A stretch of 55,834 nucleotides of DNA, from positions 1-55,834 of the forward strand of contig JBKPBH010000019.1 of the NCBI GenBank assembly GCA_046726795.1, read 5' to 3'. A model generated the notes under the pieces. That model did not search any database, had not been told where the DNA came from, and saw nothing but the letters and a program-made list of their open reading frames with translations. A program made the position numbers and the translations under genes. Shown in pieces: positions 199-47,203 of the stretch. Numbering within the stretch: position 1 is the first letter of the stretch; each line of letters starts with the position of its first letter. Origin of the DNA: Acidobacteriota bacterium (GTDB taxonomy: Bacteria > Acidobacteriota > Thermoanaerobaculia > UBA5066 > Gp7-AA6).

Positions 199-274
199 TG
201 GCTGGGGCGGGAGGACTCGAACCTCCAGATGCCGGCTCCAAAGGCCGGTGCCTTACCAGTTTGGCGACGCCCCA
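199..274 (-). tRNA. tRNA-Gln (anticodon UUG)
   Basis: The reverse complement is a 76-nt cloverleaf: TGGGGCG-TC-GCC-AAACTGGTAA-GGC-A-CCGGC-CTTTGGA-GCCGG-CATCT-GGAGG-TTCGAGT-CCTCC-CGCCCCA-G-CCA. It has the U1:A72 acceptor pair and 3-bp D stem typical of bacterial tRNA-Gln, anticodon TTG, a canonical T loop and an encoded CCA. Confidence 0.88.
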
Positions 275-7248: not shown

Positions 7249-7428
7249 CTAGGAGGCTGTCCGAGTAAGACCCGTCGCGAGCGCGGCGAGGCCGACGCGA
7301 GAGTGGAAGCGCAGAAAAACGGCGCGGAGTCGTAGCAGAGCTACGTCGCACAAGCCGTTTTTCGAGCATTCCGCTCACAGCGAGAGAATCGCCGCGCGCA
7401 GTAGGGGATTACTCGGACAGGCTCCTAG
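7249..7428. repeat. 180-bp element with 20-bp terminal inverted repeats (MITE-like or long structured hairpin)
   Basis: CTAGGAGGCTGTCCGAGTAA (7249-7268) against TTACTCGGACAGGCTCCTAG (7409-7428) is 19/20 complementary. The interior is also partly self-complementary: gcgcggcga/tcgccgcgc, gaaaaacggc/gccgtttttc, cgtag/ctacg. Confidence 0.55.
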
Positions 7429-8390
7429 ACGAGAGGATGCTCGTCGAGAGTCAAGAGCGGCGGGACGTCCGGCTCGGGCGGCGCACGCAGCGAGGCCGCG
7501 GCGGCGGCGGACGCGGCCTCGACGCGATCGTAGAGAGACAGGTACGAGCCCCAGGCAGCGACGCGCACTGCGGGACGAATCGCGAGGACGGCGACCTGCA
7601 GCAGGATGTGAAGCCCGATCGCGGCTGCGGAGACCGCCGGCGCGGTCCACTCGAGCCAGACGCCCGCGAAGAGCAGAGTGCCGCCCAGGATGAGCCAGAA
7701 CAGGAAGAGGCCCAGGGCGCGGAGCCAGCGGCCGGAGAGAATTCTCCGGGCACGCCCGTAGGCGCGCCAGGCTCCCACGCCCGGATCGTCCCGGCGGGCC
7801 GCTCGCGCGAAGTCGTGGAGCAACGAGAAGACCGCGTAGAGGAGAAGGGCTCCGAGGATCGTCAGAATGCGCCAGCCCAGAGCGGGAGTCGCCCCCGGCG
7901 GCGCGTTTTCGAAGGCCTTCTTCGAGACGGCGCGCGTGAACCCCATCCACAGACCGATCGAGGCACCGGCCGCGAGCAGGAAGAGGAGGAAGCACTTCGA
8001 GTTGTGCCACGCGTTTCGTCGCACGCCCGCCACGAACTCCGACGGCGTGAACCCACCGGGCCGGCCGAGCGCGGACACGATCCCTCCCACGACCAGGACC
8101 TGCTGGAAAAGGAGAAGCAAGGCAGCCCATCTCGCGGCGGCGCTCACGCCGGCCACAGCGGGCGCCTTCTCGCGCAGGAAATCCACGACGTCCGTCGCGG
8201 CGAATCGAGGATCGTTCTTCAGGACGTGGTCTCCTCCAAGCGTGCGGCCAAAGGCGTCCGCGAGCGAAGGACCGAGCGGCGCCGCAGCCAGGAGAGACAG
8301 GACGATCGTCGTCGCCGTCAGCAGGAGGACGATCGCCCGGCCGCTTCGAACGGCCGCGAATCCAGCGGAGAGGCTTCCGCGGCCTTCCAT
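7425..8390 (-). CDS. hypothetical polytopic membrane protein
   Basis: ATG 8390 lies 5 nt downstream of the M1 peptidase stop. 322 aa with several hydrophobic helices. The upstream 164 aa of track ORF 7425..8882 overlap the peptidase gene and are Arg/Gly-rich shadow sequence. Confidence 0.6.
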   Translation of the reverse strand: MEGRGSLSAGFAAVRSGRAIVLLLTATTIVLSLLAAAPLGPSLADAFGRTLGGDHVLKNDPRFAATDVVDFLREKAPAVAGVSAAARWAALLLLFQQVLVVGGIVSALGRPGGFTPSEFVAGVRRNAWHNSKCFLLFLLAAGASIGLWMGFTRAVSKKAFENAPPGATPALGWRILTILGALLLYAVFSLLHDFARAARRDDPGVGAWRAYGRARRILSGRWLRALGLFLFWLILGGTLLFAGVWLEWTAPAVSAAAIGLHILLQVAVLAIRPAVRVAAWGSYLSLYDRVEAASAAAAASLRAPPEPDVPPLLTLDEHPLV

Positions 8391-8395
8391 CGGTC

Positions 8396-10549
8396 TCACG
8401 CCAGCACCCAGGCGGCCTGCAGGAACAGGCCGACGAGGTACGCGGTCTTGGCGAAATACTTCGCGACGGCCCCGCCTCCCGCGGTATCCGCGGCGCCCTT
8501 GCCGGTCCGGAGCACGCGGGAGTCGTTTAATCGGTTCCACTCCCAGGCGTTGACGCGGTCGGGGTCCACGGCCGCCCACGCAAGCCTGGACTTGAAGCGG
8601 ATGCGCAGCCGGACCCAGCGAGCCTCGGCCGGGAGGGTCCGATTCACGACGGTGCCGTCCTCGAAGACGAGTCGGGCCTTCGCCTCGTGCGGCCATTCGC
8701 CCGTGTTGCCGAAGACCACGACGCTCTCGAAGACCTTTTCCTTCGCGTCCTTCTCCTTGCCCCGCTTCTCCTCCTTCGGCCGGACCTGCCGCCCCTTCTC
8801 GTAGGTCGCCCGCCCGCCCGGCAAGTCGAAGACACCGGAGTCCTTCGCTTCGTTCTCGCTCCGCGCCGAGACAACGCTCCAATCAAGCCGCGACGTTCCT
8901 TCCACCAGGTTGCGGCGGTAGGAAGACAGGTCGCGTCCGGAGACCTTCTCGAAGACATCGAAGAAGTCCGATGTCGAGGGGTGCCGGAAGGACCACTGCT
9001 GAAAATAGGCCCGTTGCGACCGCGCGAACGTCCCGGCGCCGAGGTCGTTTCGCAGCTGCGCGAGGAAGAGCCCGACCTTGGGATAGGAGTTGGTGCCGTA
9101 GGAGCCGCCGGAGAAGTAACGCCAGGCGAAGCGCCGGATCGGATCGAGGTTGGGGAGTCCCGCATAGGCGGCATGACCGTAGGCATACATGTCCAGCCCC
9201 ATGCTTCCGGGCAATGCGGCCGGGCGCGGGCCGTAGGCGAGCTGCATCGCGCGGTATTCCGAGTCGGTGTTGATCCCCTCATCGAGCCACGACTCTTCGA
9301 ACTCGTTGGAGCCCACCATTCCGTACCAGTACTGGTGCCCGAACTCGTGGATGGTCACGTCCTCGACGAGGCGCACGCGATCGAGCGGCCACCGCGAGAA
9401 GAGCTTGGGCGCGAGGCCGGTGATGAACGTCGGGTACTCCATGCCGCCCGCACCCAGGCCGTCCTCCGGCGGATCCACGACCGTCAGAGTTTCGTAGGGG
9501 TAGGCACCAAACCAGAGGCCGTAGAACGAGAGGGCTTCCTTCGTCGAGCGCACATAGCGGTCGCGAGCCGCCGCGTGCTCGGGTTCGAGCAAGAGACGCA
9601 CCGAAACGGGCTTCAGCGCGAGCTCCTCTTCCGGCACGCCGAGCTGCGAAGCCGCCAGCGCACTCCAGCCGCGCGGGATATCGCCGGGCGGCTCGAATCG
9701 GAACTCGTGGACGAGGAGGCGCGGGTCCGCGGTCCACGCGAAGTCGTGGACGTCGTCGGCAACGTACCGGAGGACCGTGCGGTCGCCCCGCTTCTCCGCG
9801 GAGACGCGTTTGCCCGTCGCCCCGACGACGGAGGAGGAGGGAACCGTCAGCGTGACGTCGTAATGCCCGTAGTCCGCGTAGAACTCCGAGTTGGCGTGGA
9901 AGGAATGGCAGTTCCAGCCGCCGCGCGCACGCCCCCTCATCCCGGCGGGCTCGTACACGCCGATCTTCGGAAACCACTGCCCCACGAGGTGGAAGTCGCG
10001 GACGTAACCCGTCCGGGCGAAGACGCGGGGGAGCTTGGAGCGGAAGGAGATCGAGACTGCGACCTCGCCGTGGGGGGCAACGGGGGAGGGCAGGGTGACC
10101 GAGAGCACGGTCTCGTCGGAAGCGGGTGTCCCGCCGGGGAAAGGATAACCGTCGGGCTGGAGGAACCGCGCCGAGGGCTTCAAGTCCGCGCCGGCGCCGG
10201 TCGCAATCGAGAGCACGTCGATGAAGCCCCAGTCCTCTGGCTTCGTCCCGGCCCTGTCCCTGCGGAGCTGTCCGCCCGACTCCCGCGCGAAGATTGAGCG
10301 GTTGTTCTTGAAGGCGTTCAAGTAGAGGTGGAACTGGAGCTCACCGACGGCGTCGCCCGAGGGATTCCTCCAAACCAGAATCTCCCGGCCCTCCACGGTG
10401 TGGGTCTTCCCGTCGAGGGTCGCCTGGATCGTGTACTCGACCACGGGTGGAGAGATGGGTGTGGCGGCCTGAAGAGCAGGGGCGAGCGCCAGCGCCACCA
10501 CGCCCAGAGGCAGGGCCAGGCGCCGCACGGCGCGGGAAAAACAAATCAC
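8396..10549 (-). CDS. M1 family zinc metallopeptidase (aminopeptidase N-like), secreted
   Basis: HEFGHQYWYG...(18 aa)...WLDEG is the gluzincin HEXXH-X18-E motif. N-terminal signal peptide MICFSRAVRRLALPLGVVALALAPALQA. Confidence 0.85.
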   Translation of the reverse strand: MICFSRAVRRLALPLGVVALALAPALQAATPISPPVVEYTIQATLDGKTHTVEGREILVWRNPSGDAVGELQFHLYLNAFKNNRSIFARESGGQLRRDRAGTKPEDWGFIDVLSIATGAGADLKPSARFLQPDGYPFPGGTPASDETVLSVTLPSPVAPHGEVAVSISFRSKLPRVFARTGYVRDFHLVGQWFPKIGVYEPAGMRGRARGGWNCHSFHANSEFYADYGHYDVTLTVPSSSVVGATGKRVSAEKRGDRTVLRYVADDVHDFAWTADPRLLVHEFRFEPPGDIPRGWSALAASQLGVPEEELALKPVSVRLLLEPEHAAARDRYVRSTKEALSFYGLWFGAYPYETLTVVDPPEDGLGAGGMEYPTFITGLAPKLFSRWPLDRVRLVEDVTIHEFGHQYWYGMVGSNEFEESWLDEGINTDSEYRAMQLAYGPRPAALPGSMGLDMYAYGHAAYAGLPNLDPIRRFAWRYFSGGSYGTNSYPKVGLFLAQLRNDLGAGTFARSQRAYFQQWSFRHPSTSDFFDVFEKVSGRDLSSYRRNLVEGTSRLDWSVVSARSENEAKDSGVFDLPGGRATYEKGRQVRPKEEKRGKEKDAKEKVFESVVVFGNTGEWPHEAKARLVFEDGTVVNRTLPAEARWVRLRIRFKSRLAWAAVDPDRVNAWEWNRLNDSRVLRTGKGAADTAGGGAVAKYFAKTAYLVGLFLQAAWVLA

Positions 10550-10598
10550 GCGGACGATCTCGCCGCCGAATCCTGATCGCGGGAGTTGGCGGAGTCAA

Positions 10599-10604
10599 TA
10601 CAAT
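10599..10604 (+). promoter_or_regulatory. -10-like hexamer TACAAT, 7 nt upstream of the SDR gene GTG (predicted leaderless)
   Basis: caaTACAATtcgagccGTG. No SD is present. It lies in the divergent intergenic region shared with the M1 peptidase gene. Confidence 0.35.
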
Positions 10605-10611
10605 TCGAGCC

Positions 10612-11610
10612 GTGCCCCGCCCGACCGTGTTCCTGACCGGAGGGACTGGTTTCGTCGGAGGCCACGTCGCTCGCGCCCTCTGCGAAGAAGGATGGGCGGT
10701 CCGAGCGTTCGCTCGAAGGACGCGGGCGCTGACCGAGGGGCTGTTGCGCGATCTTCCGCTCGAAGCCGTCGCGGGAGATTTCTCGGAGGCCTCGTGGCCG
10801 GCGGTCGTGGCAGCGCTCTCCGGTTGTCACGCCATTGTCCATGTGGCCGGTCTCGTCAAAGCGCGGTCGCTCGCGGAATACCGGGAGGTCAACGTGGCCG
10901 GGACCCGGCGCCTCCTCGAAGCCGCCGGGCGATCCTCGCCCGACGCGCTCTTCGTGCTCGTCTCGAGCCAGGCCGCGGCGGGCCCGGCCGTGGACGGGAG
11001 ACCGCGGACCGAGGAGGGTCCCGCGCAGCCCGTCTCCTGGTACGGGCGTTCGAAGCTCGAGGCGGAGCAACTCGTGGAGCGGGAGTGGAAGGGGCCCTGG
11101 ATCGTGCTGCGACCGGCCGTCATCTACGGGCCCGGGGATCGCGGGCTCCTGACGCTCTTTAGGGCGGCGGCGCGTGGCTGGGTCCCCGTTCCCGCGGGTC
11201 GTTCCCGGATCCAGCTGATCGAGGCTGCGAGAGCCGCGCGGGCGATCGCTCTGGTCGCCGCGCGAGCCGACCTGGCCGGCCGCACCGCTTTCCTCTGCGA
11301 TCCGGAGCCGGTCGCGATTTCCAGGCTCGCTGGCATGATCGCCCGCCTGCCCGAGCGTCCGGCCAGGCTCGTCCCCATGCCCGATGTTCTCGTGCGGCTG
11401 GCGGGGTTCGCGGCGACGCTTCGGGAGGCGCTCACTCATCGCTCGCTTCCGTTCAACGCGGACAAGGCCCGGGAGGTCCTGGCCGGCGACTGGCTCTGCG
11501 AGCCGGCCCTGATGCAGAAGCATCTGTCCGTGCCCCCCCCGTCTCCTCTGGAGTACGGACTGAAAAGCACCTGGGAATGGTACCGGCGCGAGGGGTGGCT
11601 GGTTTTGTAA
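10612..11610 (+). CDS. NAD-dependent epimerase/dehydratase family protein (extended SDR)
   Basis: Rossmann motif VFLTGGTGFVGGHV 5 aa after GTG 10612, and catalytic YGRSK (YxxxK). The upstream part of track ORF 10447..11610 overlaps the divergent peptidase gene. Confidence 0.8.
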   Translation: MPRPTVFLTGGTGFVGGHVARALCEEGWAVRAFARRTRALTEGLLRDLPLEAVAGDFSEASWPAVVAALSGCHAIVHVAGLVKARSLAEYREVNVAGTRRLLEAAGRSSPDALFVLVSSQAAAGPAVDGRPRTEEGPAQPVSWYGRSKLEAEQLVEREWKGPWIVLRPAVIYGPGDRGLLTLFRAAARGWVPVPAGRSRIQLIEAARAARAIALVAARADLAGRTAFLCDPEPVAISRLAGMIARLPERPARLVPMPDVLVRLAGFAATLREALTHRSLPFNADKAREVLAGDWLCEPALMQKHLSVPPPSPLEYGLKSTWEWYRREGWLVL

Positions 11611-11658
11611 AATTTGCTAAGATCGGCGGGAGGGGAATCCGGTCACAAGGTGGGAGGC

Positions 11659-12903
11659 ATGATGAGCAAACCCGCCCCGGCGTTGACTACCCGAGCGGAG
11701 AAGGCCTCCGCGTTCTTCGACAAGTGCTATCGGTATGAGGTGCCGGGGCGCGTCCGGGAGGCCGGGGTCTACTCCTTCTTCCGGGTCGTGGAATCGGCCC
11801 AGGACCCCGAGGTCACAATCGGGGGCCGCCGGCTCATCATGCTGGGATCGAACAATTACCTGGGCTTGACCAACGACCCGCGAGTCAAGGAGGCGGCGAT
11901 CGAAGCCGTCCGCCGGTACGGCTCGGGCAGCGCCGGCAGCCGCTTCTTGAACGGCACGCTCGACATTCACGTCCGCCTGGAGGACCGTCTGGCGGAGTTC
12001 ATGCGCCAGGAGGCGGCCGTCACGTTCGCAACGGGATTCCAGGTCAACCTGGGTGCCATTTCCTGCCTCGTGGGCAAGGGTGACACCGTCTATCTGGACA
12101 AGCAGGACCACGCCTGCATCATCGACGGGGCCCGCCTGTCCTTCGGAGACGTCCGCAAATTCCGACACAACGACGCGGCGGACCTCAAGCGTCAAATGAG
12201 GCAGGACATCGGCGCGAAGGGCCGCTTCATCGTCGTGGACGGTGTGTTCTCCATGGAAGGGGACATCGCTCCACTTCCCGAGATCCTGGCCGCGGCGCGG
12301 GAGTTCGGCGCGGGGCTCATGGTGGACGACGCGCACGGCATCGGAGTCCTGGGCCCGACGGGCCGCGGGACCTCGGAGCACTTCGGCCTGGAAGACGACG
12401 TGGACCTGATTATGGGCACGTTCTCCAAGTCCATGGCCTCCGTCGGAGGCTTCATCGCCGGGGGCGCGGTCGTCATCGACTACATCAAGCACCGCGCGCG
12501 GACCATGATCTTCTCCGCCGCGCCGCCTCCCGCCTCCGTCGCCGCCGCCCTGGCGACCCTGGAGATCATGGAAGGGGAGCCGGAGCGCCGCGCGAGACTC
12601 TGGAAGAACACCCGCTTCTTCCTGGAGGGATTGAAGGCTCTGGGGCTCAACACGGGCAACTCGGAGACGCCCGTCGTGCCGATCGTCGTCGGAGAGGACG
12701 CTGCGGCTCTCGCGATGGTGCAGCGGCTCCACGAAGCCGGTGTCTTCGTCAACTGTGTCCTGTCGCCGGCCACGCCGCCCGGCCGCGCTCTGATCCGGAC
12801 CTCGCTCATGGCCACTCACACGACCGACCAGCTCTCGCGAGCGCTGGAAGCCATCGAGAAGGTCGCGCGGCAGGTCGGCCTGATTCGCGCCGTCGAGGTG
12901 TGA
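11659..12903 (+). CDS. PLP-dependent alpha-oxoamine synthase, serine palmitoyltransferase-like
   Basis: SNNYLGL, GSGSAGSRFLNGT, DHACIIDG, VVDGVFSMEGD, MVDDAHG, and the PLP-lysine motif GTFSKSMASVGGF. That motif is the SPT type GTFSKS, not the GTLGKA/GTLSKA of Kbl/BioF. ATG 11659 is preceded by GGGAGG. Confidence 0.85.
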   Translation: MMSKPAPALTTRAEKASAFFDKCYRYEVPGRVREAGVYSFFRVVESAQDPEVTIGGRRLIMLGSNNYLGLTNDPRVKEAAIEAVRRYGSGSAGSRFLNGTLDIHVRLEDRLAEFMRQEAAVTFATGFQVNLGAISCLVGKGDTVYLDKQDHACIIDGARLSFGDVRKFRHNDAADLKRQMRQDIGAKGRFIVVDGVFSMEGDIAPLPEILAAAREFGAGLMVDDAHGIGVLGPTGRGTSEHFGLEDDVDLIMGTFSKSMASVGGFIAGGAVVIDYIKHRARTMIFSAAPPPASVAAALATLEIMEGEPERRARLWKNTRFFLEGLKALGLNTGNSETPVVPIVVGEDAAALAMVQRLHEAGVFVNCVLSPATPPGRALIRTSLMATHTTDQLSRALEAIEKVARQVGLIRAVEV

Positions 12904-12981
12904 GGGAAAGTCTCCGCGGTCGGCCCTCCGTTGCCAGTTCTGAACAGCCCCCGTCTTCGACCCGCTGAAAGCTGAAAGCCG

Positions 12982-14124
12982 ATGGCTGACGGCGCCCTCG
13001 AGATTGAACCCATCTCGCGCTCGAAGCGCGATCTCTCGCGCTTCTTCGACGTGGCCGACCGCGTCTACTGTGGCGATCCCAACTGGGTGCCGCCACTGCG
13101 CGACGACGTCGCGAAGGTCTTCTCGAAGAAAAACCCCTTCTTCGATCACGCCGAGATCCAACTCTTCGTGGCGCGTCGCGGCGACAGAGACGTCGGCCGG
13201 ATCGCGGCGACCATTGACCGCAGCCACAACGATTTCCATGGAGAGAAAACCGGCTTCTTCGGCTTCTTCGAGTCGATCGACGATCGGGAGGTCTCCGGCG
13301 CGCTGTTCGAGACCGCCTCCGGCTGGGCGCGGGAGAGGGGGATGGAGACTCTTCGGGGCCCCGCCAACCCGAGCATGAACGACGAGGCCGGACTCCTCGT
13401 CGAAGGATTCGGCAAGCCACCCGTTCTCATGATGACCTACAACCCCCGCTATTACGTGGATCTGGTCGAAGAGGCCGGTTTCCGGAAGGCCAAGGATCTC
13501 CTGGCCTGCTGGTTCGAGATCGGGACCGAGCCGCTGGCGCATTTCACTCGCATCAACGAGAGATTCCGGCGACGGACTCCGGACGTCATCGTGCGGAAGG
13601 TCTCGAAGAAGAGCCTGGCGGCGGACCTGCCGAAGATCCGGGAGGTCTACAACGAGGCCTGGGAGAAGAACTGGGGCTTCGTGCCGATGACACCGGAGGA
13701 GATGGGCTTCATGGCGGCGCGCTTGAGGCCGCTCTTGGACGAGAACTTCCTCTTCCTGGGGGAAGCCAGGAGAGCGGATGGATCGCTCGAGCCGGTCGCC
13801 TTCATGCTCTCCCTGCCCGACTACAACCAGGCAATCCAGCCCCTGGGCGGCCGGCTTCTGCCGTTTGGATGGCTGAAGTTCCTCCTGGGGATCAAGAAGA
13901 TCAACAGACTCCGTGTGGTCACGCTCGGCTTGAAGAAGGACTACCGGATGCGCGGCATTCAATCCATCATGTTCGAAGAGGGCCTTCGTGCGGCCTTGAA
14001 GCGCGGGTTCACCGGATGCGAGGTCTCCTGGATGCTGGAGGACAATGAGCTCGTGCTCAGGTCCGTCCGTCTCTGGGGCGGAAGGCCTTACAAGACTTAC
14101 CGCATGTACGACAAGAAACTGTAG
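12982..14124 (+). CDS. large GNAT-like N-acyltransferase (function unknown; candidate ceramide-synthase-type enzyme)
   Basis: 380 aa. The central block ARERGMETLRGPANPSMNDEAGLLVEGF...MMTYNPRYYVDLVEEAGF resembles the acyl-CoA N-acyltransferase fold family annotated as GNAT. The assignment is by recognition only. Confidence 0.65.
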   Translation: MADGALEIEPISRSKRDLSRFFDVADRVYCGDPNWVPPLRDDVAKVFSKKNPFFDHAEIQLFVARRGDRDVGRIAATIDRSHNDFHGEKTGFFGFFESIDDREVSGALFETASGWARERGMETLRGPANPSMNDEAGLLVEGFGKPPVLMMTYNPRYYVDLVEEAGFRKAKDLLACWFEIGTEPLAHFTRINERFRRRTPDVIVRKVSKKSLAADLPKIREVYNEAWEKNWGFVPMTPEEMGFMAARLRPLLDENFLFLGEARRADGSLEPVAFMLSLPDYNQAIQPLGGRLLPFGWLKFLLGIKKINRLRVVTLGLKKDYRMRGIQSIMFEEGLRAALKRGFTGCEVSWMLEDNELVLRSVRLWGGRPYKTYRMYDKKL

Positions 14125-14221
14125 GTCTTGGAGCGAGCGGCCGCCCAGGTCGTGCCCCACGCACCGTAGGGGCGGGCGTCGCGCCCGCCCGCCTCTCTCC
14201 GGCCCGCCGAGTCGTCGAGAC

Positions 14222-14244
14222 GGTGGCGCGCTGGTTGCGCCACC
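14222..14244 (+). terminator. hairpin downstream of the GNAT-like gene
   Basis: GGTGGCGC-gctggtt-GCGCCACC followed by gcctttctc. Confidence 0.4.
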
Positions 14245-14350
14245 GCCTTTCTCGATCGTGACTCTGTTGCACGACCGTAGCAGTCGTGTCGAGGTGTGGC
14301 GCCAGCGAAGGGATCGGCTTTCCCGACCTGGTGGCGAAACGAGCAGAGAC

Positions 14351-14371
14351 GGGCGGCCGCAAAGGCCGCCC
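14351..14371 (-). terminator. hairpin immediately after the PAP2 gene stop
   Basis: GGGCGGCC-gcaaa-GGCCGCCC abuts the stop codon at 14372-14374. It is part of an inverted pair of CCGTAGGGGCGG REP-like motifs. Confidence 0.4.
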
Positions 14372-15256
14372 CTACGGCGCGTCGGGAACGCGGAGGCCCG
14401 GAGCGCCTGTCCAGCAGTCGTAGAGACGGTCGCCCAGCGGAACCGCCACGAATGCCAGTAACGCGCCGGCGATCACGTCCACGACATAGTGATACCGGCA
14501 ATAGACCGTCGAGACGACGAGGCAGGCCGCGATCGGAAGCAACCACCAGAAGGCATCCCGCGCCCGCTGGAAGGCCGCGATCAGGACCACGACCGCGATC
14601 ATGGTGTGCCCCGAAGGGAAGACGTCGGACTTGGTGCGCTCGAGTTCATCGAGTGTAGAGGAAACCGTTCGCGAGAGAGCCGTCGCTTCGAGCGGGACCG
14701 TGTGCAGGGAGGCGAGGGCGACCCGGGGACCCAGCGCCGGAAGGAGGAAGTAGCCGGCGTAGGAGATCAGGTAGGAAACCGTGAGCATGAAGATGAAACG
14801 TCGGGCGGCCGGCCGGCTCCGCAACCAGAGCACGGCCCCGAGCGCGATCGCGATGAAGTAGTAGGTCAGATAAGCGACGAAGAAAAGGTCCGTCAGAGCG
14901 GGACGCACGAACCTCTGGAGCCAGACGGTTGGATCCGTTCCGAGCAGGGCGCGGTCGGCAGCGATCAGAAGATCGTCGCAGGCCACGGGCCGGGCGGCCG
15001 AGATCAGGGGCCCCAGGCTCTCGTAGAGAATCGGAATGAACGCGATCGGATAGAAATTCAGGAGAATCCGCGCCGTGGCGGGCAACCGGTCTTCCCGCCG
15101 GGCCGCGGCCGCCGCGGCGACGAGTCCGGCGGCCATGGCCGCGTAGCGAAGGAGCATGCTCCCGGCCTCCGGCACACGCCCATTGAGCCAGAGCGTCAGC
15201 GCGGTGAGAACGGCGAGGGTTCCGAAGTTCACGACTTCCAGCGGCCGCAGGCGCAC
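14372..15256 (-). CDS. PAP2 superfamily membrane protein (lipid phosphate phosphatase / sphingomyelin-IPC synthase-like)
   Basis: Polytopic protein with C-terminal motifs FPSGHTM and CRYHYVVDVIAG. These match the SGH and HYxxD(V) catalytic motifs of the LPP/SMS/Aur1 family. Confidence 0.8.
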   Translation of the reverse strand: MRLRPLEVVNFGTLAVLTALTLWLNGRVPEAGSMLLRYAAMAAGLVAAAAAARREDRLPATARILLNFYPIAFIPILYESLGPLISAARPVACDDLLIAADRALLGTDPTVWLQRFVRPALTDLFFVAYLTYYFIAIALGAVLWLRSRPAARRFIFMLTVSYLISYAGYFLLPALGPRVALASLHTVPLEATALSRTVSSTLDELERTKSDVFPSGHTMIAVVVLIAAFQRARDAFWWLLPIAACLVVSTVYCRYHYVVDVIAGALLAFVAVPLGDRLYDCWTGAPGLRVPDAP

Positions 15257-28609: not shown

Positions 28610-29791
28610 ATGGAAGACATCGTCATTCTTGAGGGCGTCCGGACTCCGATGGCGGAGTACAACGGCGCCTTCTCCGACATCTCGGCCATCGACCTGGCCG
28701 TCCACGCTTCGCGAGAAGCCTTGAAGCGCTCGGGGACCGAGCCCGAGGAGATCGAGCATGTCATCTTCGGCAACGCGCTGCAGACCTCGGGCGACGCGAT
28801 CTACGGCGCGCGCCACGTGGCCTTGAAGTCCGGCATCCCGAAGGAAGTCCCGGCCCTGACGGTGAACCGCCTCTGCGGGTCCGGATTCGAGTCCATCGTG
28901 CAGGCGTCCCATCGGATCAATCTGGGCGAAGCGGGGACCGTGCTCGCGGGCGGCATGGAGAACATGTCGCAGGCGCCTCACGTCATCCGCGGCGCGCGCA
29001 AGGGCTTGAAGCTGGGGCAGGGCAAACTCGAGGACTCGCTCATGGTGGCGCTTCTCGACACGTACGCGGGGCTCTACATGGCCGAGACCTCCGACCGGGT
29101 CGCCGCGAAGTACGGGATCACCCGGGAGGAACAGGACGCCTACGCCCTCTCCTCCCAGAAGCGCGCGGCGGCCGCCTGGGCTTCCTGCCGGCTCTCCGAG
29201 GAGGTCGTGCCGGTGGAGTGGAAGTCCGGTCGCAAGACGATGCGCATCGAAAAAGACGACCACTTGCGTCCCGAGACGACGCTCGAGACCCTGGCCGCCC
29301 TCCCCCCGTCCTTCGGAGAAGGTGGACAGGTCACGGCGGGCAACGCCTCCGGGATCGTGGACGCCGCCGCGGCCGTCGTCGTGACCTCGGCCGAGCGCGC
29401 ACGCGCGAAGGGGAGGAAGCCGCTCGGCCGTCTGGTCGCCTCCGCCGTGGTCGGCTGTGAGCCCGAGTTGATGGGGCTCGGTCCCGCCCCGGCCGCCCGC
29501 GCCGCGCTGCAGAAAGCCGGGTTGGCGATGAAAGACATCGACCTCTGGGAAATCAACGAGGCTTTCGCCGGCCAGATCCTCGGAGTCATCCGAGAACTCG
29601 GCCTCGATCGCGAAAGGTTGAACGTCAACGGCGGCGCGATCGCTCTGGGGCACCCGCTGGCGGCCACGGGGACGCGCTGCACGCTGACCCTGCTCAAGGA
29701 ACTGCGGCGGCGCGGCCTGCGCTACGGGCTCGCGGGTGCCTGCATCGGCGGAGGCCAGGGGATCGCCGTGGTCGTCGAGGTCCTGGGATAG
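28610..29791 (+). CDS. acetyl-CoA C-acetyltransferase (thiolase II)
   Basis: MEDIVILEGVRTPM, active-site VNRLCGSG, NGGAIALGHP, and GACIGGGQG at the C-terminus. Confidence 0.92.
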   Translation: MEDIVILEGVRTPMAEYNGAFSDISAIDLAVHASREALKRSGTEPEEIEHVIFGNALQTSGDAIYGARHVALKSGIPKEVPALTVNRLCGSGFESIVQASHRINLGEAGTVLAGGMENMSQAPHVIRGARKGLKLGQGKLEDSLMVALLDTYAGLYMAETSDRVAAKYGITREEQDAYALSSQKRAAAAWASCRLSEEVVPVEWKSGRKTMRIEKDDHLRPETTLETLAALPPSFGEGGQVTAGNASGIVDAAAAVVVTSAERARAKGRKPLGRLVASAVVGCEPELMGLGPAPAARAALQKAGLAMKDIDLWEINEAFAGQILGVIRELGLDRERLNVNGGAIALGHPLAATGTRCTLTLLKELRRRGLRYGLAGACIGGGQGIAVVVEVLG

Positions 29792-29844
29792 CCTCCCGCC
29801 TGTCGGCTTTCATCTCTCCGCTTTCAAGGAAAACCGAGGTGGCG

Positions 29845-30705
29845 ATGAAGATCTCCCGGGTTGGAGTTCTCGGAGCGGGCCTGATGGGGTCCGGGATCGC
29901 CGAGGTGGCGGCGAAGGCCGGATACGAGACGACCGTGCGGGAAGTCTCGGAGGAGCTCGAGCGCAAGGGGCTCTCGCGCATCGAAGGATCTCTGGCGAGA
30001 GCCGTCGAGAAGGGGAAGCTCGACGCCGCGGCCCGCGACGCCGCCCGAGCCAGGCTCTCGACGACGACGCGGCTCGAGGAGCTGTCCGAGTGCGACATCG
30101 TCGTCGAGGCGATCGTCGAGAGCCTCGAGGCCAAGAGGGAAGTCTTCCAAACCCTCGATCGGGCCTGCAAACCGGACACCATCTTCTGCTCCAACACCTC
30201 GTCGCTGACGATCACCGAGTTGTCGGCCGCGACGCGCCGGCCGGACCGGTTCGCCGGGCTTCACTTCTTCAATCCCGTGCCGGTCATGAAGCTCGTCGAG
30301 GTGGTCCGGACGATCGCGACCTCGGAGGCGACGGAAAAGACGGTCTTCGACTTCGCCAAGTCGCTCGGCAAGGAACCGATCCGGGCGCAGGACAACTCGG
30401 GATTCGTCGTCAACCGCCTGCTCGTCCCGTACCTGCTCGACGCCGTCCGCGCGCTCGATGAAGGGGTTGCGACGAGGGAGGACATCGACATGGGGATGGA
30501 GCTCGGATGCGGCCACCCGATGGGTCCCCAGAGGCTCCTCGATTTCGTGGGCCTCGACACGACCTATGCCATCGCCGAGATCATGTTCAACGAATACCGG
30601 GAGAAGCGGTTCGCGCCGCCGCCCCTCTTGAAACGCATGGTGGTCGCCGGCCGTTTCGGGAAGAAGTCGGGGCGCGGGTTCTACGAGTACGGAGAGGGGA
30701 AATGA
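29845..30705 (+). CDS. hbd: 3-hydroxybutyryl-CoA dehydrogenase
   Basis: VGVLGAGLMGSGIA Rossmann motif and SNTSSL, HFFNPVPVMKLVE, GFVVNR. ATG 29845 is preceded by GAGGTG; GTG 29839 is the alternative. Confidence 0.9.
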   Translation: MKISRVGVLGAGLMGSGIAEVAAKAGYETTVREVSEELERKGLSRIEGSLARAVEKGKLDAAARDAARARLSTTTRLEELSECDIVVEAIVESLEAKREVFQTLDRACKPDTIFCSNTSSLTITELSAATRRPDRFAGLHFFNPVPVMKLVEVVRTIATSEATEKTVFDFAKSLGKEPIRAQDNSGFVVNRLLVPYLLDAVRALDEGVATREDIDMGMELGCGHPMGPQRLLDFVGLDTTYAIAEIMFNEYREKRFAPPPLLKRMVVAGRFGKKSGRGFYEYGEGK

Positions 30706-44759: not shown

Positions 44760-45839
44760 TCAGCCGCCGGGGGAGTCGAGGCAGCGGGCGATGGCATCGA
44801 GCCCGCGGCGGAGCTGATCGGTCGCCCCGCCGAAGGAGAGCCGGAAATGAGCGGGGGAGTCGAAGAAACGCCCCGGCGCCACGGCGACCCCGTGCTCCGC
44901 GAAGAGGCGGCGGACGAAAGGCTCGGCATTCCGGCGGTCGCGGAACCGGGGGAAGGCGATCGTCGCGCTGGAGGGGACGCATTCGAGTTCGACGCGGCCA
45001 GCGATGACGTCGGCCAAGACACGAGCGTTTGTCTCGATGAGGGTACGGGCGCGCTCCGCGAGGCGATCCAGGTGTCGAAACGCCAGGACTGCGAGGCGGT
45101 CTGAGGGGATCGGGCCCCAGACGTCCACGACATCGCGGGCGCGGCGGATGCGTTCCGCGACTTCCGGAGCGGCGAGCGCCCAGCCGCACCGAAGCGAGGC
45201 CAGCCCCCAGGATTTCGTCAGGCTGTTGGTCGAGATGAAGGCCGGCGAGAGGAGCGCCGCCGGAGGGTGCCTGTCTCCCAGCGCGGCGTCGAGATAGACC
45301 TCGTCGACGAGGACGAGGGCTCCGGCCTTCTCCGCGATGCCGCCGAGCGCGCGAAGAGCTTCGGCAGAGGCGAGGACTCCCGATGGATTGTGAGGGCTCG
45401 ACACGACGATCAGCCTGGTCTTCCCGCCGATCGCCGCGGCGATCCGCTCAGGATCGAGCGCGTAACCCTCTTCGAAGCGTCTCTCGAAGGACACAACGCT
45501 GGCGCCGAGCATCCGTGCCGTGGCGGCGAGAGGGTCGTAGGCGGGATGCTCCATCAGAACCTCGTCGCCGGTCTCGAGGATCGCCGCGCAGGCCAGAAAA
45601 TTCGCTCCGGAGCAGCCGCCCGCCGAGGCGACGCGGTCGGGCGTGACGCCGTAGCGCCGCGCGATGGCCTCGATGAGGGGCGGATAGCCGTCCGGGCTCT
45701 CGCCGGCGAGGTCCAGCGCCTCGCGCGCGCCGGGGAGGTCGTCGAGAGTGCAGGCGAGAAGGTTCGAGCCGGCCAGATCGACCTCGGGACGGGGGCGATG
45801 CCGGGCCCATTCCATATACGGGGCTCGGGCGCGGGTCAT
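44760..45839 (-). CDS. PLP-dependent aminotransferase, class I/II
   Basis: SPHNPSG, VDEVY and NSLTKSWGLASLRCGW (PLP-Lys / Arg motif). Confidence 0.85.
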   Translation of the reverse strand: MTRARAPYMEWARHRPRPEVDLAGSNLLACTLDDLPGAREALDLAGESPDGYPPLIEAIARRYGVTPDRVASAGGCSGANFLACAAILETGDEVLMEHPAYDPLAATARMLGASVVSFERRFEEGYALDPERIAAAIGGKTRLIVVSSPHNPSGVLASAEALRALGGIAEKAGALVLVDEVYLDAALGDRHPPAALLSPAFISTNSLTKSWGLASLRCGWALAAPEVAERIRRARDVVDVWGPIPSDRLAVLAFRHLDRLAERARTLIETNARVLADVIAGRVELECVPSSATIAFPRFRDRRNAEPFVRRLFAEHGVAVAPGRFFDSPAHFRLSFGGATDQLRRGLDAIARCLDSPGG

Positions 45840-47203
45840 CGGTCAGCCTTGTCGACGACGTGTGTCCGGCCCTCTGCCCCGGGAAGAGGAAGACGAGAGC
45901 GGCGATTCGCGTAGAAGAAATAGACGGGGACGCCGGTGGCGAGGAGGACCATGCCGATCAAGGAACGCTTCGGGTTCGAGGCCGCGGCGCTGGCGATCGC
46001 GGCGATGCCGGTCACGACGAAGAAGGCGGGGAACCAGGGGTAGCCAGGCGTGCGGAAGGAGCCGGCGGGACGCGCGGCGAGCGGGAAGCGGCGCCGGAAG
46101 AGAAACACCGCCGCAACGGTCAGGGTGAAGAAAATCCAGTCGCCGAAGACGACGGAGTCCACGAGGTCGGCGTACGTGCCGGTCAGGACGAGCACGACGC
46201 CCCAGGCGGCCTGGAGAACGATCGCGAGGGACGGAGTCTGGAATCGCGGGTGTAGCCGCCCGAGCCCTTCGAAGAAGAGCCGGTCCGCCCCCATCGCGTA
46301 GTAGATGCGAGTCTGAGCCAGGAGCGTCAGATCGAGGAAGCCGAAGGCCGACACCGTGATCGCTGCCGCGATCAAACGGTCAGCTCCGGGGCCGAAGATC
46401 CGGCGGACGGCGTCCGCCGCGGGCGTGGTCGTCGCGGCGAGGCCTTCGCGAGTCAGCGCCGAGAGGTATACAGCGTTGGCGAGCAGGTAGACCAGGATCA
46501 CGATCACGGTCCCGGCCACGAGGGCCAGGGGCAGCGTCCGCCGTGGCTCCCGCATTTCCTCCGCGATGATGTTGGCGCTCTGCCAGCCTCCGTAGGTGAA
46601 GAGGATCGGGATCAGCGCGGCGCCGAAGGCGACCACTCCCGAGCCGCCGGGAAAGGCCATGGAGGAGGCAGGAGCGGGGGAATGGTGGGAAAGGAACAGT
46701 CCGCCACCGATCAGGGCCGCGAGCGCGGCGATCTTGGCGAGCACGAGCACGTTCAACAGACGGCTGCCGGGCTTGACGCCGACATAGTTCACCGCCGCCA
46801 CCACCGCGATGGCCGCGATCGCCAAAGGCGCCGCCGGTGCCGCGCTCCCGCCAACCAGCCGCAGGGTGTACTGCGCGAACGCGATCGCGACGGCCGCAAG
46901 ACCGCCCCCCTGGATCATCAGGAGCGAGGCCCATCCGAAGAGGAACGCGACCCCGGGATGGTAAGCCTCGCGAAGGTACACGTACTCGCCTCCGGCCTTC
47001 GGGAAGAGGGCTCCCAGCTCCGCGAACGCGAAGGCCCCGGCGAGCGCGATCGCGCCTCCGACGACCCAGGCGGCGAGCACGAGACCTCCGGAGGAGAGCC
47101 GCTGCGCGACGATGTAGGGGTTGATGAAGATCCCGCTTCCGATGATCCCGCCGACGACGACCATCGTCGCGTCGAAGGGCCCGAGCGCGCGGCGGAAAGC
47201 CAT
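45836..47203 (-). CDS. APC family amino acid permease
   Basis: About 12 TM helices. N-terminal VVGGIIGSGIF motif typical of APC transporters. The stop overlaps the aminotransferase start by 4 nt. Confidence 0.88.
   Translation of the reverse strand: MAFRRALGPFDATMVVVGGIIGSGIFINPYIVAQRLSSGGLVLAAWVVGGAIALAGAFAFAELGALFPKAGGEYVYLREAYHPGVAFLFGWASLLMIQGGGLAAVAIAFAQYTLRLVGGSAAPAAPLAIAAIAVVAAVNYVGVKPGSRLLNVLVLAKIAALAALIGGGLFLSHHSPAPASSMAFPGGSGVVAFGAALIPILFTYGGWQSANIIAEEMREPRRTLPLALVAGTVIVILVYLLANAVYLSALTREGLAATTTPAADAVRRIFGPGADRLIAAAITVSAFGFLDLTLLAQTRIYYAMGADRLFFEGLGRLHPRFQTPSLAIVLQAAWGVVLVLTGTYADLVDSVVFGDWIFFTLTVAAVFLFRRRFPLAARPAGSFRTPGYPWFPAFFVVTGIAAIASAAASNPKRSLIGMVLLATGVPVYFFYANRRSRLPLPGAEGRTHVVDKADR

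Follow-up and report, generated by a model that had tools for sequence, protein, structure and literature searches.

The stretch of DNA analysed here, called the window in the following, comprises positions 1 to 55,834 (55.8 kb) of contig JBKPBH010000019.1 from the assembly GCA_046726795.1. The source is an uncultured, high-GC member of the Acidobacteriota, whose closest relatives are metagenome-assembled genomes (MAGs) of the Thermoanaerobaculia. Between positions 10612 and 15256 four neighbouring genes are found which very probably encode the three-enzyme bacterial ceramide pathway together with a probable head-group enzyme.

Gene content of the locus

A first-pass annotation had proposed three co-directional genes and a convergent fourth one. 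All four open reading frames (ORFs) were confirmed at the coordinates given there:

10612-11610, plus strand: extended short-chain dehydrogenase/reductase (SDR) with NAD(P)-dependent epimerase/dehydratase fold, 332 amino acids, GTG start
11659-12903, plus strand: alpha-oxoamine synthase, probable serine palmitoyltransferase (Spt) of the Bacteroidota/delta-proteobacterial type, 414 amino acids
12982-14124, plus strand: predicted tandem-GNAT N-acyltransferase of the YghO/bCerS family, candidate ceramide synthase, 380 amino acids
14372-15256, minus strand: PAP2_3 membrane enzyme similar to AUR1 and other inositol phosphorylceramide (IPC) synthases, candidate ceramide phospho-head-group transferase, 294 amino acids

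The three co-directional genes are separated by gaps of 48 and 78 bp, and 247 bp lie between the convergent stops of the acyltransferase and the PAP2 genes. The GC content is 66-70% along the whole window (overall about 67%), and with a third-codon-position GC of 0.83-0.87 the ORFs of the synthase, the acyltransferase and the PAP2 protein are typical of genuine genes in this DNA. The SDR ORF fell outside the filters of the third-codon-position GC list; it is taken as a genuine gene on the basis of its match to the Pfam Epimerase family and its conserved orthologues. The motifs that had been named for two of the proteins could also be located. In the synthase the PLP (pyridoxal phosphate)-lysine motif GTFSKS occupies residues 253-258 (window 12415-12432), and in the PAP2 protein the motifs of the SGH and HYxxDV type read PSGHT (residues 214-218) and RYHYVVDV (residues 254-261).

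The alpha-oxoamine synthase is most similar to serine palmitoyltransferases

In the NCBIfam library the top model for the synthase is NF047600, Spt of the CFB type, with 540.6 bits, which is below the curated cut-off of 640 and thus outside the equivalog range, so that the model is to be read as the closest match only. The models for the BioF/Kbl subfamily (431 bits), beta-proteobacterial Spt (411), bioF (397) and Kbl (394) follow at a distance, and the CFB model outscores both the beta- and the alpha-proteobacterial Spt models. The search of the PDB gives a similar picture. The Spt of Sphingobacterium multivorum (8guh/3a2b) is the best match with 441 bits, followed by the BioF/Kbl protein from Thermus (325 bits), the Sphingomonas Spt (about 296-308 bits) and the cysteate-C-fatty acyltransferases 28eh and 7u7h (274 and 245 bits). 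To the crystallised Sphingobacterium enzyme the synthase aligns over 386 residues with 52% identity and not a single gap; its identity to the Spt of the Escherichia coli cluster is 41.6%.

According to these model and structure scores the synthase groups with the serine palmitoyltransferases and not with BioF, Kbl, HemA or CqsA. This agrees with the first-pass annotation, which had set the synthase apart from BioF and Kbl on account of the motif and the overall layout. An identity as BioF or Kbl was rejected, the respective models scoring about 140 bits below the Spt model, as was an identity as a cysteate acyltransferase (274 and 245 against 441 bits for Spt).

The 380-amino-acid protein belongs to the YghO/bCerS family

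For the 380-amino-acid protein no match was found in Pfam or NCBIfam and no significant sequence match in the PDB. The YghO protein of E. coli is likewise without an NCBIfam match, and the missing assignment is therefore regarded as a gap in the libraries and not as counter-evidence. The family is large: an E value of 1e-3 or lower is reached by 7961 representative clusters and one of 1e-30 or lower by 1538. The closest relatives of the window protein are encoded by MAGs of Thermoanaerobaculia and other Acidobacteriota. Some of the relatives weakly match PF00583.

A direct comparison with E. coli YghO reveals a full-length alignment with 34.5% identity over 374 amino acids (E 9e-82). YghO (ECD_02850) in turn is the published orthologue of Caulobacter CC_1154, with 44% identity, an E value of 1e-107 and 98% coverage (PMC9386255, Figure 9, Table S2), and CC_1154, also known as CCNA_01212 or bCerS, is the N-acyltransferase which is genetically required for dihydroceramide formation in Caulobacter (PMC9386255, PMC11324152). 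Searching plasmid sequences with tblastn retrieved, among other matches, a gene of Pseudomonas veronii annotated as YghO, whose product is 38.9% identical to the window protein, and a Streptomyces gene which is located between an aminotransferase-class synthase and an SDR of the epimerase family. These similarities make the 380-amino-acid protein a putative acyltransferase of the YghO/bCerS family and a candidate bacterial ceramide synthase, and they bear out the relationship to bCerS-type enzymes suspected for this GNAT-like protein.

The AlphaFold2 model of the protein (pLDDT 83, pTM 0.83) is in line with that assignment. Foldseek relates it with a probability of 1.00 to the tandem-GNAT proteins 2wpw, 7q3a, 5kf1 and 2c27 (TM-scores of 0.68-0.72 when normalised to the target, TMt, and of 0.58-0.62 when normalised to the query, TMq), which include a clavulanate-pathway protein (2wpw), MAB_4324, a glucosamine N-acetyltransferase and mycothiol synthase. 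A tandem-GNAT fold is thus predicted, and the sequence RMRGIQS (residues 322-328) in the C-terminal half would fit the loop that binds the pyrophosphate of coenzyme A (CoA) in GNAT proteins.

Two observations on other members of the family may be added. A database protein of 784 amino acids (P0121) appears to be a tandem duplication of the YghO/bCerS unit, with two matched stretches and GNAT matches in both halves. Several full-length homologues encoded on Roseomonas plasmids (matches H3, H4, H6 and H11-H20) carry the name 'dATP pyrophosphohydrolase' and adjoin nucleotidyltransferase genes; the name looks like a misannotation.

The reductase resembles CerR

The SDR contains the motifs TGGTGFVG (residues 9-16) and YGRSK (residues 144-148) and matches the Pfam family PF01370 (Epimerase) with 97.7 bits. 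In BLASTP its identity to the epimerase-like protein encoded in the spt cluster of E. coli is 28.3% over 322 amino acids (E 2e-26), and that to the SDR of the Streptomyces cluster is 34% (E 2e-36). The SDRs of the window, E. coli and Streptomyces have the same distant NCBIfam fingerprint in common, in which HpnA leads with about 95 bits and OleD comes next. In the reverse direction, the cluster reductases of E. coli, Pseudomonas and Streptomyces have positions 10618-11568 as their sole match within the entire window. The E. coli cluster epimerase is the orthologue of Caulobacter CC_1164 (CerR) with 34% identity (PMC9386255 Table S2), so that the SDR can be considered a candidate 3-keto reductase of the CerR type.

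A longer reading frame for this gene starts at position 10447 and would add 55 amino acids (10447-10611), an arginine-rich stretch in which 'SRRRILIAG' resembles a twin-arginine motif. Since CerR of Caulobacter was reported to be periplasmic, a signal of the twin-arginine (Tat) type was considered and ruled out. The extension is not conserved, in most orthologues stop codons occur shortly upstream of the Rossmann motif, and it would overlap the divergent peptidase gene. Therefore the start near 10612 is taken as correct, and the SDR is without a signal peptide.

Conservation of the gene cluster and gene fusions

Starting from an alignment of 16 sequences, as one of 61 sequences was too diverse, 80 loci with the acyltransferase gene were collected from species-representative genomes and complemented by a close relative of the window (L001), giving 81 loci. 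Within 5 kb of the acyltransferase gene an Spt gene is present in 53 of them, an SDR gene in 43 and a PAP2 gene in 30. Restricting the count to the 46 loci which have 4 kb or more on either side gives 35, 31 and 21, respectively. The loci are distributed over Acidobacteriota, Rokubacteria, Verrucomicrobiota, Gemmatimonadota, Eisenbacteria, Zixibacteria, Calditrichia, Ignavibacteria, Cytophagia, Desulfuromonadaceae, Nitrospiraceae and others.

Among the loci at least eight gene orders can be distinguished. SDR-Spt-acyltransferase is found with or without a convergent PAP2 gene, and another order has a divergent SDR. Gemmatimonadota and Eisenbacteria exhibit the order Spt-acyltransferase-SDR-PAP2, Bryobacterales, where all four genes are present, SDR-PAP2-acyltransferase-Spt, and Verrucomicrobiae acyltransferase-PAP2-SDR-Spt. 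In the close relative the entire neighbourhood is syntenic, including the unrelated genes for an M1 peptidase, NfeD, Band-7, LipA and Lnt, and for that reason close relatives are not informative with regard to co-conservation. Synteny of the flanking peptidase and NfeD genes is confined to close relatives.

Apparent gene fusions point in the same direction. Two database proteins, P0148 with 780 and P0199 with 648 amino acids, combine an Spt-like N-terminal half with a C-terminal half of the YghO/bCerS family. For the N-terminal half of one of them NF047600 is the best model (470 bits), and its identity to the Spt of the window amounts to 48%. Since the genes cluster across phyla in shuffled orders which the flanking genes do not follow, and since fusions exist, they form a functional module and are not adjacent by chance. 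The expectation that the genes would be conserved together in relatives was thereby borne out, in many phyla and irrespective of gene order.

Some of the loci deviate from the common arrangements. In a Thermoanaerobaculia MAG (L020, 2398-12066) an insert of about 5.3 kb splits the SDR-Spt pair from the acyltransferase-PAP2 pair, the peptidase and NfeD flanks being retained. Three loci of the Verrucomicrobiota, among them one from an Akkermansia muciniphila MAG (L015, 2218-4249; the others are L011 and L022), contain the acyltransferase gene followed by a convergent PAP2 gene, and no homologue of Spt or SDR was found in the flank that was fetched. All four genes are together in the Verrucomicrobiae loci L012 and L053. 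The substrate of this acyltransferase-PAP2 pair may be produced by genes at other places in the genome, or the pair may be concerned with a different lipid. The linear plasmid of Streptomyces sp. NBC_01001 (L082, 6766-11292) encodes a synthase, a GNAT protein and an epimerase-family SDR, with 4-bp overlaps between each of them, and then a condensation-domain protein; here the module exists in an actinobacterial version carried on a plasmid and has an additional enzyme resembling nonribosomal peptide synthetases.

The PAP2 protein is related to AUR1

The PAP2 protein is assigned to PF14378 (PAP2_3) with 76.4 bits at a cut-off of 27, and PAP2_C matches weakly (28.3 bits). As a single sequence it has no match in the PDB. 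A profile built from 21 cluster-linked orthologues finds AUR1, the yeast IPC synthase (9vj3), as the best match over about 220 residues (E 1.3e-8), whereas the matches to PgpB, LpxE and acid phosphatases are confined to roughly the last 80 residues. Invariant in the 21 orthologues are the motifs PxxGP, PS(G/S)H and H-Y-x-x-D. The similarity to sphingomyelin and IPC synthases claimed in the first-pass annotation is thus supported at the family level; from there, substrate and head group can only be suggested.

One characterised bacterial member of this branch is BT_1522 of Bacteroides, a ceramide head-group transferase which makes phosphoinositol dihydroceramide (PMC9246714). The window protein reaches 31.6 bits with the corresponding model NF052609, far under the cut-off of 480, and no inositol-lipid genes were seen near the cluster. 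The PAP2 protein is probably a ceramide phospho-head-group transferase, going by its family and its closest solved relative, and no particular head group is assigned to it.

The PAP2_3 gene accompanies spt, bcerS and cerR in Acidobacteriota, Gemmatimonadota, Eisenbacteria, Verrucomicrobiota, Nitrospiraceae and delta-proteobacterial MAGs. We tentatively propose, at somewhat less than an even chance, that it represents the founding example of a widespread bacterial phosphosphingolipid synthase which moves the phospho-head group of a glycerophospholipid onto ceramide and is distinct from the phosphoinositol dihydroceramide synthase of Bacteroides. Ceramide phosphoethanolamine or ceramide phosphoglycerol may serve as examples of its possible products. 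In a search of the available literature no paper was found which applies the term 'ceramide phosphoethanolamine synthase' to a bacterium.

Proposed pathway

The family assignments of the four proteins, their conserved clustering and the fusions are direct observations. The substrates, the order of the steps, the head group and the product described in the following are those that we infer, and a ceramide pathway of this kind is, in our view, highly probable. Spt would condense L-serine with an acyl-thioester to 3-ketosphinganine. The tandem-GNAT enzyme of the YghO/bCerS family would then N-acylate the long-chain base using acyl-CoA, and the extended SDR would reduce the 3-keto group, which would lead to dihydroceramide. 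Finally, the AUR1-like PAP2_3 protein would most likely move a phospho-head group from a glycerophospholipid to the 1-hydroxyl of the ceramide, freeing diacylglycerol and yielding a phosphosphingolipid. The order of N-acylation and 3-keto reduction is debated even in Caulobacter.

The cluster had been described as having no acyl carrier protein (ACP) or acyl-ACP synthetase, and a tblastn search with the AcpR and AasR proteins of E. coli and Pseudomonas detected no such genes in the entire window. Because no dedicated gene of either kind is present, acyl-CoA is most likely the acyl donor. AcpR and AasR are tied to the alpha/beta/gamma-proteobacterial subgroup of Spt (PMC9386255), and the assignment of the window Spt to the other subgroup is consistent with their absence.

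Alternative explanations

Several points weigh against the proposed pathway. The score of the synthase stays below the Spt equivalog cut-off, and alanine is possible as the amino-acid substrate, which would lead to 1-deoxyceramides. The links to bCerS and CerR run via the E. coli orthologues and a published table and not via direct alignments with Caulobacter, Bacteroides or Porphyromonas proteins. Among the three links that of the SDR is the weakest, with identities of 28-34% in a family as large as the extended SDRs. In 22 of the 81 loci the acyltransferase gene is alone within 5 kb, and of 5426 complete E. coli genomes 4545 possess yghO; spt need not be found in every one of these. Because of these lone loci and the breadth of yghO in E. 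coli, membership in the YghO family is by itself no proof of ceramide synthase activity. Moreover, the PAP2 protein might be a phosphatase rather than a transferase.

The same set of enzymes could produce a different lipid if Spt used alanine or glycine, resulting in 1-deoxy- or 1-desoxymethyl-ceramides, or if another N-acyl amino-ketone or amino-alcohol lipid were made. The formation of 1-deoxyceramides by the same enzymes is reported for the case that alanine substitutes serine (PMC11334938 supplement), and the sub-threshold Spt score leaves room for such a substrate. However, the synthase aligns without gaps, at the identity given above, to a crystallised Spt that uses serine, and an AUR1-like transferase, which is co-clustered in 30 of the 81 loci, requires a C1 hydroxyl that only serine supplies. 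A different lipid is accordingly considered improbable. A capnine or sulfonolipid pathway, which had been put forward as an alternative, would follow the same enzyme logic with a cysteate-C-fatty acyltransferase preceding reduction and N-acylation, and the solved cysteate acyltransferases are indeed homologous to the synthase. They score far below the Spt structures and models (441 and 540.6 bits), and among the scanned genes of the window none was noticed as a homologue of cysteate synthase, so that the sulfonolipid alternative is not supported and appears hardly conceivable. Both this reading and the BioF/Kbl reading are rejected because the Spt scores in NCBIfam and PDB and the gap-free alignment are superior. 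The syntenic region of close Thermoanaerobaculia relatives, which extends over the peptidase, NfeD, LipA and Lnt genes, would also be expected if the genes were neighbours merely by inherited synteny, the synthase were BioF or Kbl and no pathway were shared. This is extremely improbable in view of the distant phyla that keep only the four genes together in rearranged orders, of the Spt-acyltransferase fusion proteins and of the deficit of about 140 bits for the BioF and Kbl models.

More weight has to be given to an alternative role of the PAP2 protein within or beside the ceramide pathway, although we still hold it to be unlikely. The protein could be a lipid phosphate phosphatase, acting on ceramide-1-phosphate, phosphatidylglycerophosphate, lipid A or undecaprenyl pyrophosphate, or stand outside the pathway. 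Its catalytic motifs are common to phosphatases and transferases, the profile also matches PgpB (E 8e-6) and LpxE (E 3e-5), and NCBIfam lists LpxE weakly. Furthermore, the gene is transcribed convergently, outside the operon, and is absent from more than half of the loci. The head-group transferase is nevertheless favoured by the family assignment to PAP2_3 and by the extent of the match to AUR1 as compared with that to the phosphatases. The gene also keeps adjoining acyltransferase, Spt or SDR genes across several gene orders and phyla, and the sole characterised bacterial member of the branch is itself a ceramide head-group transferase (PMC9246714).

Comparison with known systems

The ceramide genes of Caulobacter were reportedly described by Olea-Ozuna in 2021 and by Stankeviciute in 2022. 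As cited in PMC11087976, PMC11324152 and PMC9386255, the pathway formed by spt, bcerS (cerS, CC_1154 = CCNA_01212) and cerR (CC_1164 = CCNA_01222) was defined genetically and biochemically in Caulobacter crescentus. The same three families, an alpha-oxoamine synthase of the Spt type, a YghO-family N-acyltransferase and an epimerase-like extended SDR, are clustered in the window, which agrees with the comparison to the Caulobacter route drawn in the first-pass annotation, and the proteins appear soluble or peripheral in both organisms. There are also differences. The window Spt belongs to the Bacteroidota/delta-proteobacterial subgroup and not to the alpha/beta/gamma-proteobacterial one, and genes for AcpR or AasR are missing. 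While CerR of Caulobacter was reported to be periplasmic, no export signal is predicted for the window SDR. The three genes of the window form one tight co-directional block, whereas in alpha-, beta- and gamma-proteobacteria cerS is said to be always located in a separate operon (PMC11324152). Finally, the window has an AUR1-like PAP2 gene attached, where Caulobacter has phosphoglycerate head-group genes instead.

Direct homologues are encoded by the locus of E. coli B and enterotoxigenic E. coli (ETEC), which consists of spt, acpR, epi, aasR and yghO (ECD_02850-02854; identities of 34.5% for YghO, 41.6% for Spt and 28.3% for the epimerase). This locus, which BL21 carries completely, contains genes for an ACP and an acyl-AMP ligase as well as lptF/lptG paralogues and no PAP2 gene, in contrast to the window with its PAP2 gene and no ACP system. 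In the ETEC strain O169:H41 F6326-C1 (L084, 1-10100) yghO has spt, ACP and epimerase-like genes as neighbours, together with second copies of lptF and lptG, an arrangement that mirrors the Caulobacter sphingolipid region; the fatty acyl-AMP ligase gene beside yghO is marked there as a pseudogene due to an internal stop.

The Spt of Sphingobacterium multivorum (3a2b, 8guh) has the same PLP-lysine motif as the window Spt and is 52% identical to it, although it comes from a different phylum. In Bacteroidota the genes downstream reportedly lie scattered (PMC11334938); in the window they are adjacent. AUR1 and BT_1522 are PAP2_3 proteins which have the PSGH and H-Y-x-x-D motifs in common with the window PAP2 protein, but the relationship is distant, as indicated by the profile E value of 1.3e-8 for AUR1 and by 31.6 bits with the BT_1522 model at its cut-off of 480.

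In MAGs from the Black Sea, co-localised homologues of Spt, bCerS and CerR were used to mark potential sphingolipid producers in 38 phyla (PMC11334938). By that measure the window would rank among the potential producers as well; the main text of PMC11334938 mentions neither Acidobacteriota nor a PAP2 partner. Ceramides were reported in an Acidobacterium. A literature search for sphingolipid genes in Acidobacteriota returned papers on eukaryotes only. The type of cluster is hence already published and widely surveyed in metagenomes, and the window is an ordinary member of it.

Other genes in the window

The other window genes that were scanned are housekeeping genes. Between the genes for ribosomal protein L9 and the M1 peptidase an ORF of 485 amino acids is found (7425-8882, minus strand), which has a hydrophobic C-terminal two-thirds and no Pfam family; it failed the codon-position GC filters and may not be a genuine gene. 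A protein of the PLP aminotransferase fold (44760-47203, minus strand) is nearest to GntC (206 bits) and to the capreomycidine synthase VioD (184 bits), both below the cut-off, and its gene adjoins an amino-acid permease gene. Adjacent genes for a thiolase and a 3-hydroxyacyl-CoA dehydrogenase (28610-30705, plus strand) are of the ordinary beta-oxidation or butyrate type and have no connection with the cluster. A single tRNA gene (202-274, minus strand) is all that Rfam matches in the window.

Significance

The locus adds an example from the Acidobacteriota, similar to Thermoanaerobaculia, to the growing list of predicted bacterial sphingolipid makers, which bears on the interpretation of ceramides in soils and sediments. 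Its three core genes lie together in a compact, operon-like arrangement that does without the ACP system of proteobacteria. The so far 'hypothetical' family of the 380-amino-acid protein, for which neither a Pfam nor an NCBIfam model exists, corresponds to YghO/bCerS, and a dedicated model would improve annotation. As to how bacteria attach the head group of phosphosphingolipids, to our knowledge only the inositol case of Bacteroides has been characterised. For this step the AUR1-like PAP2 protein, with its co-clustering across phyla, offers a testable candidate.

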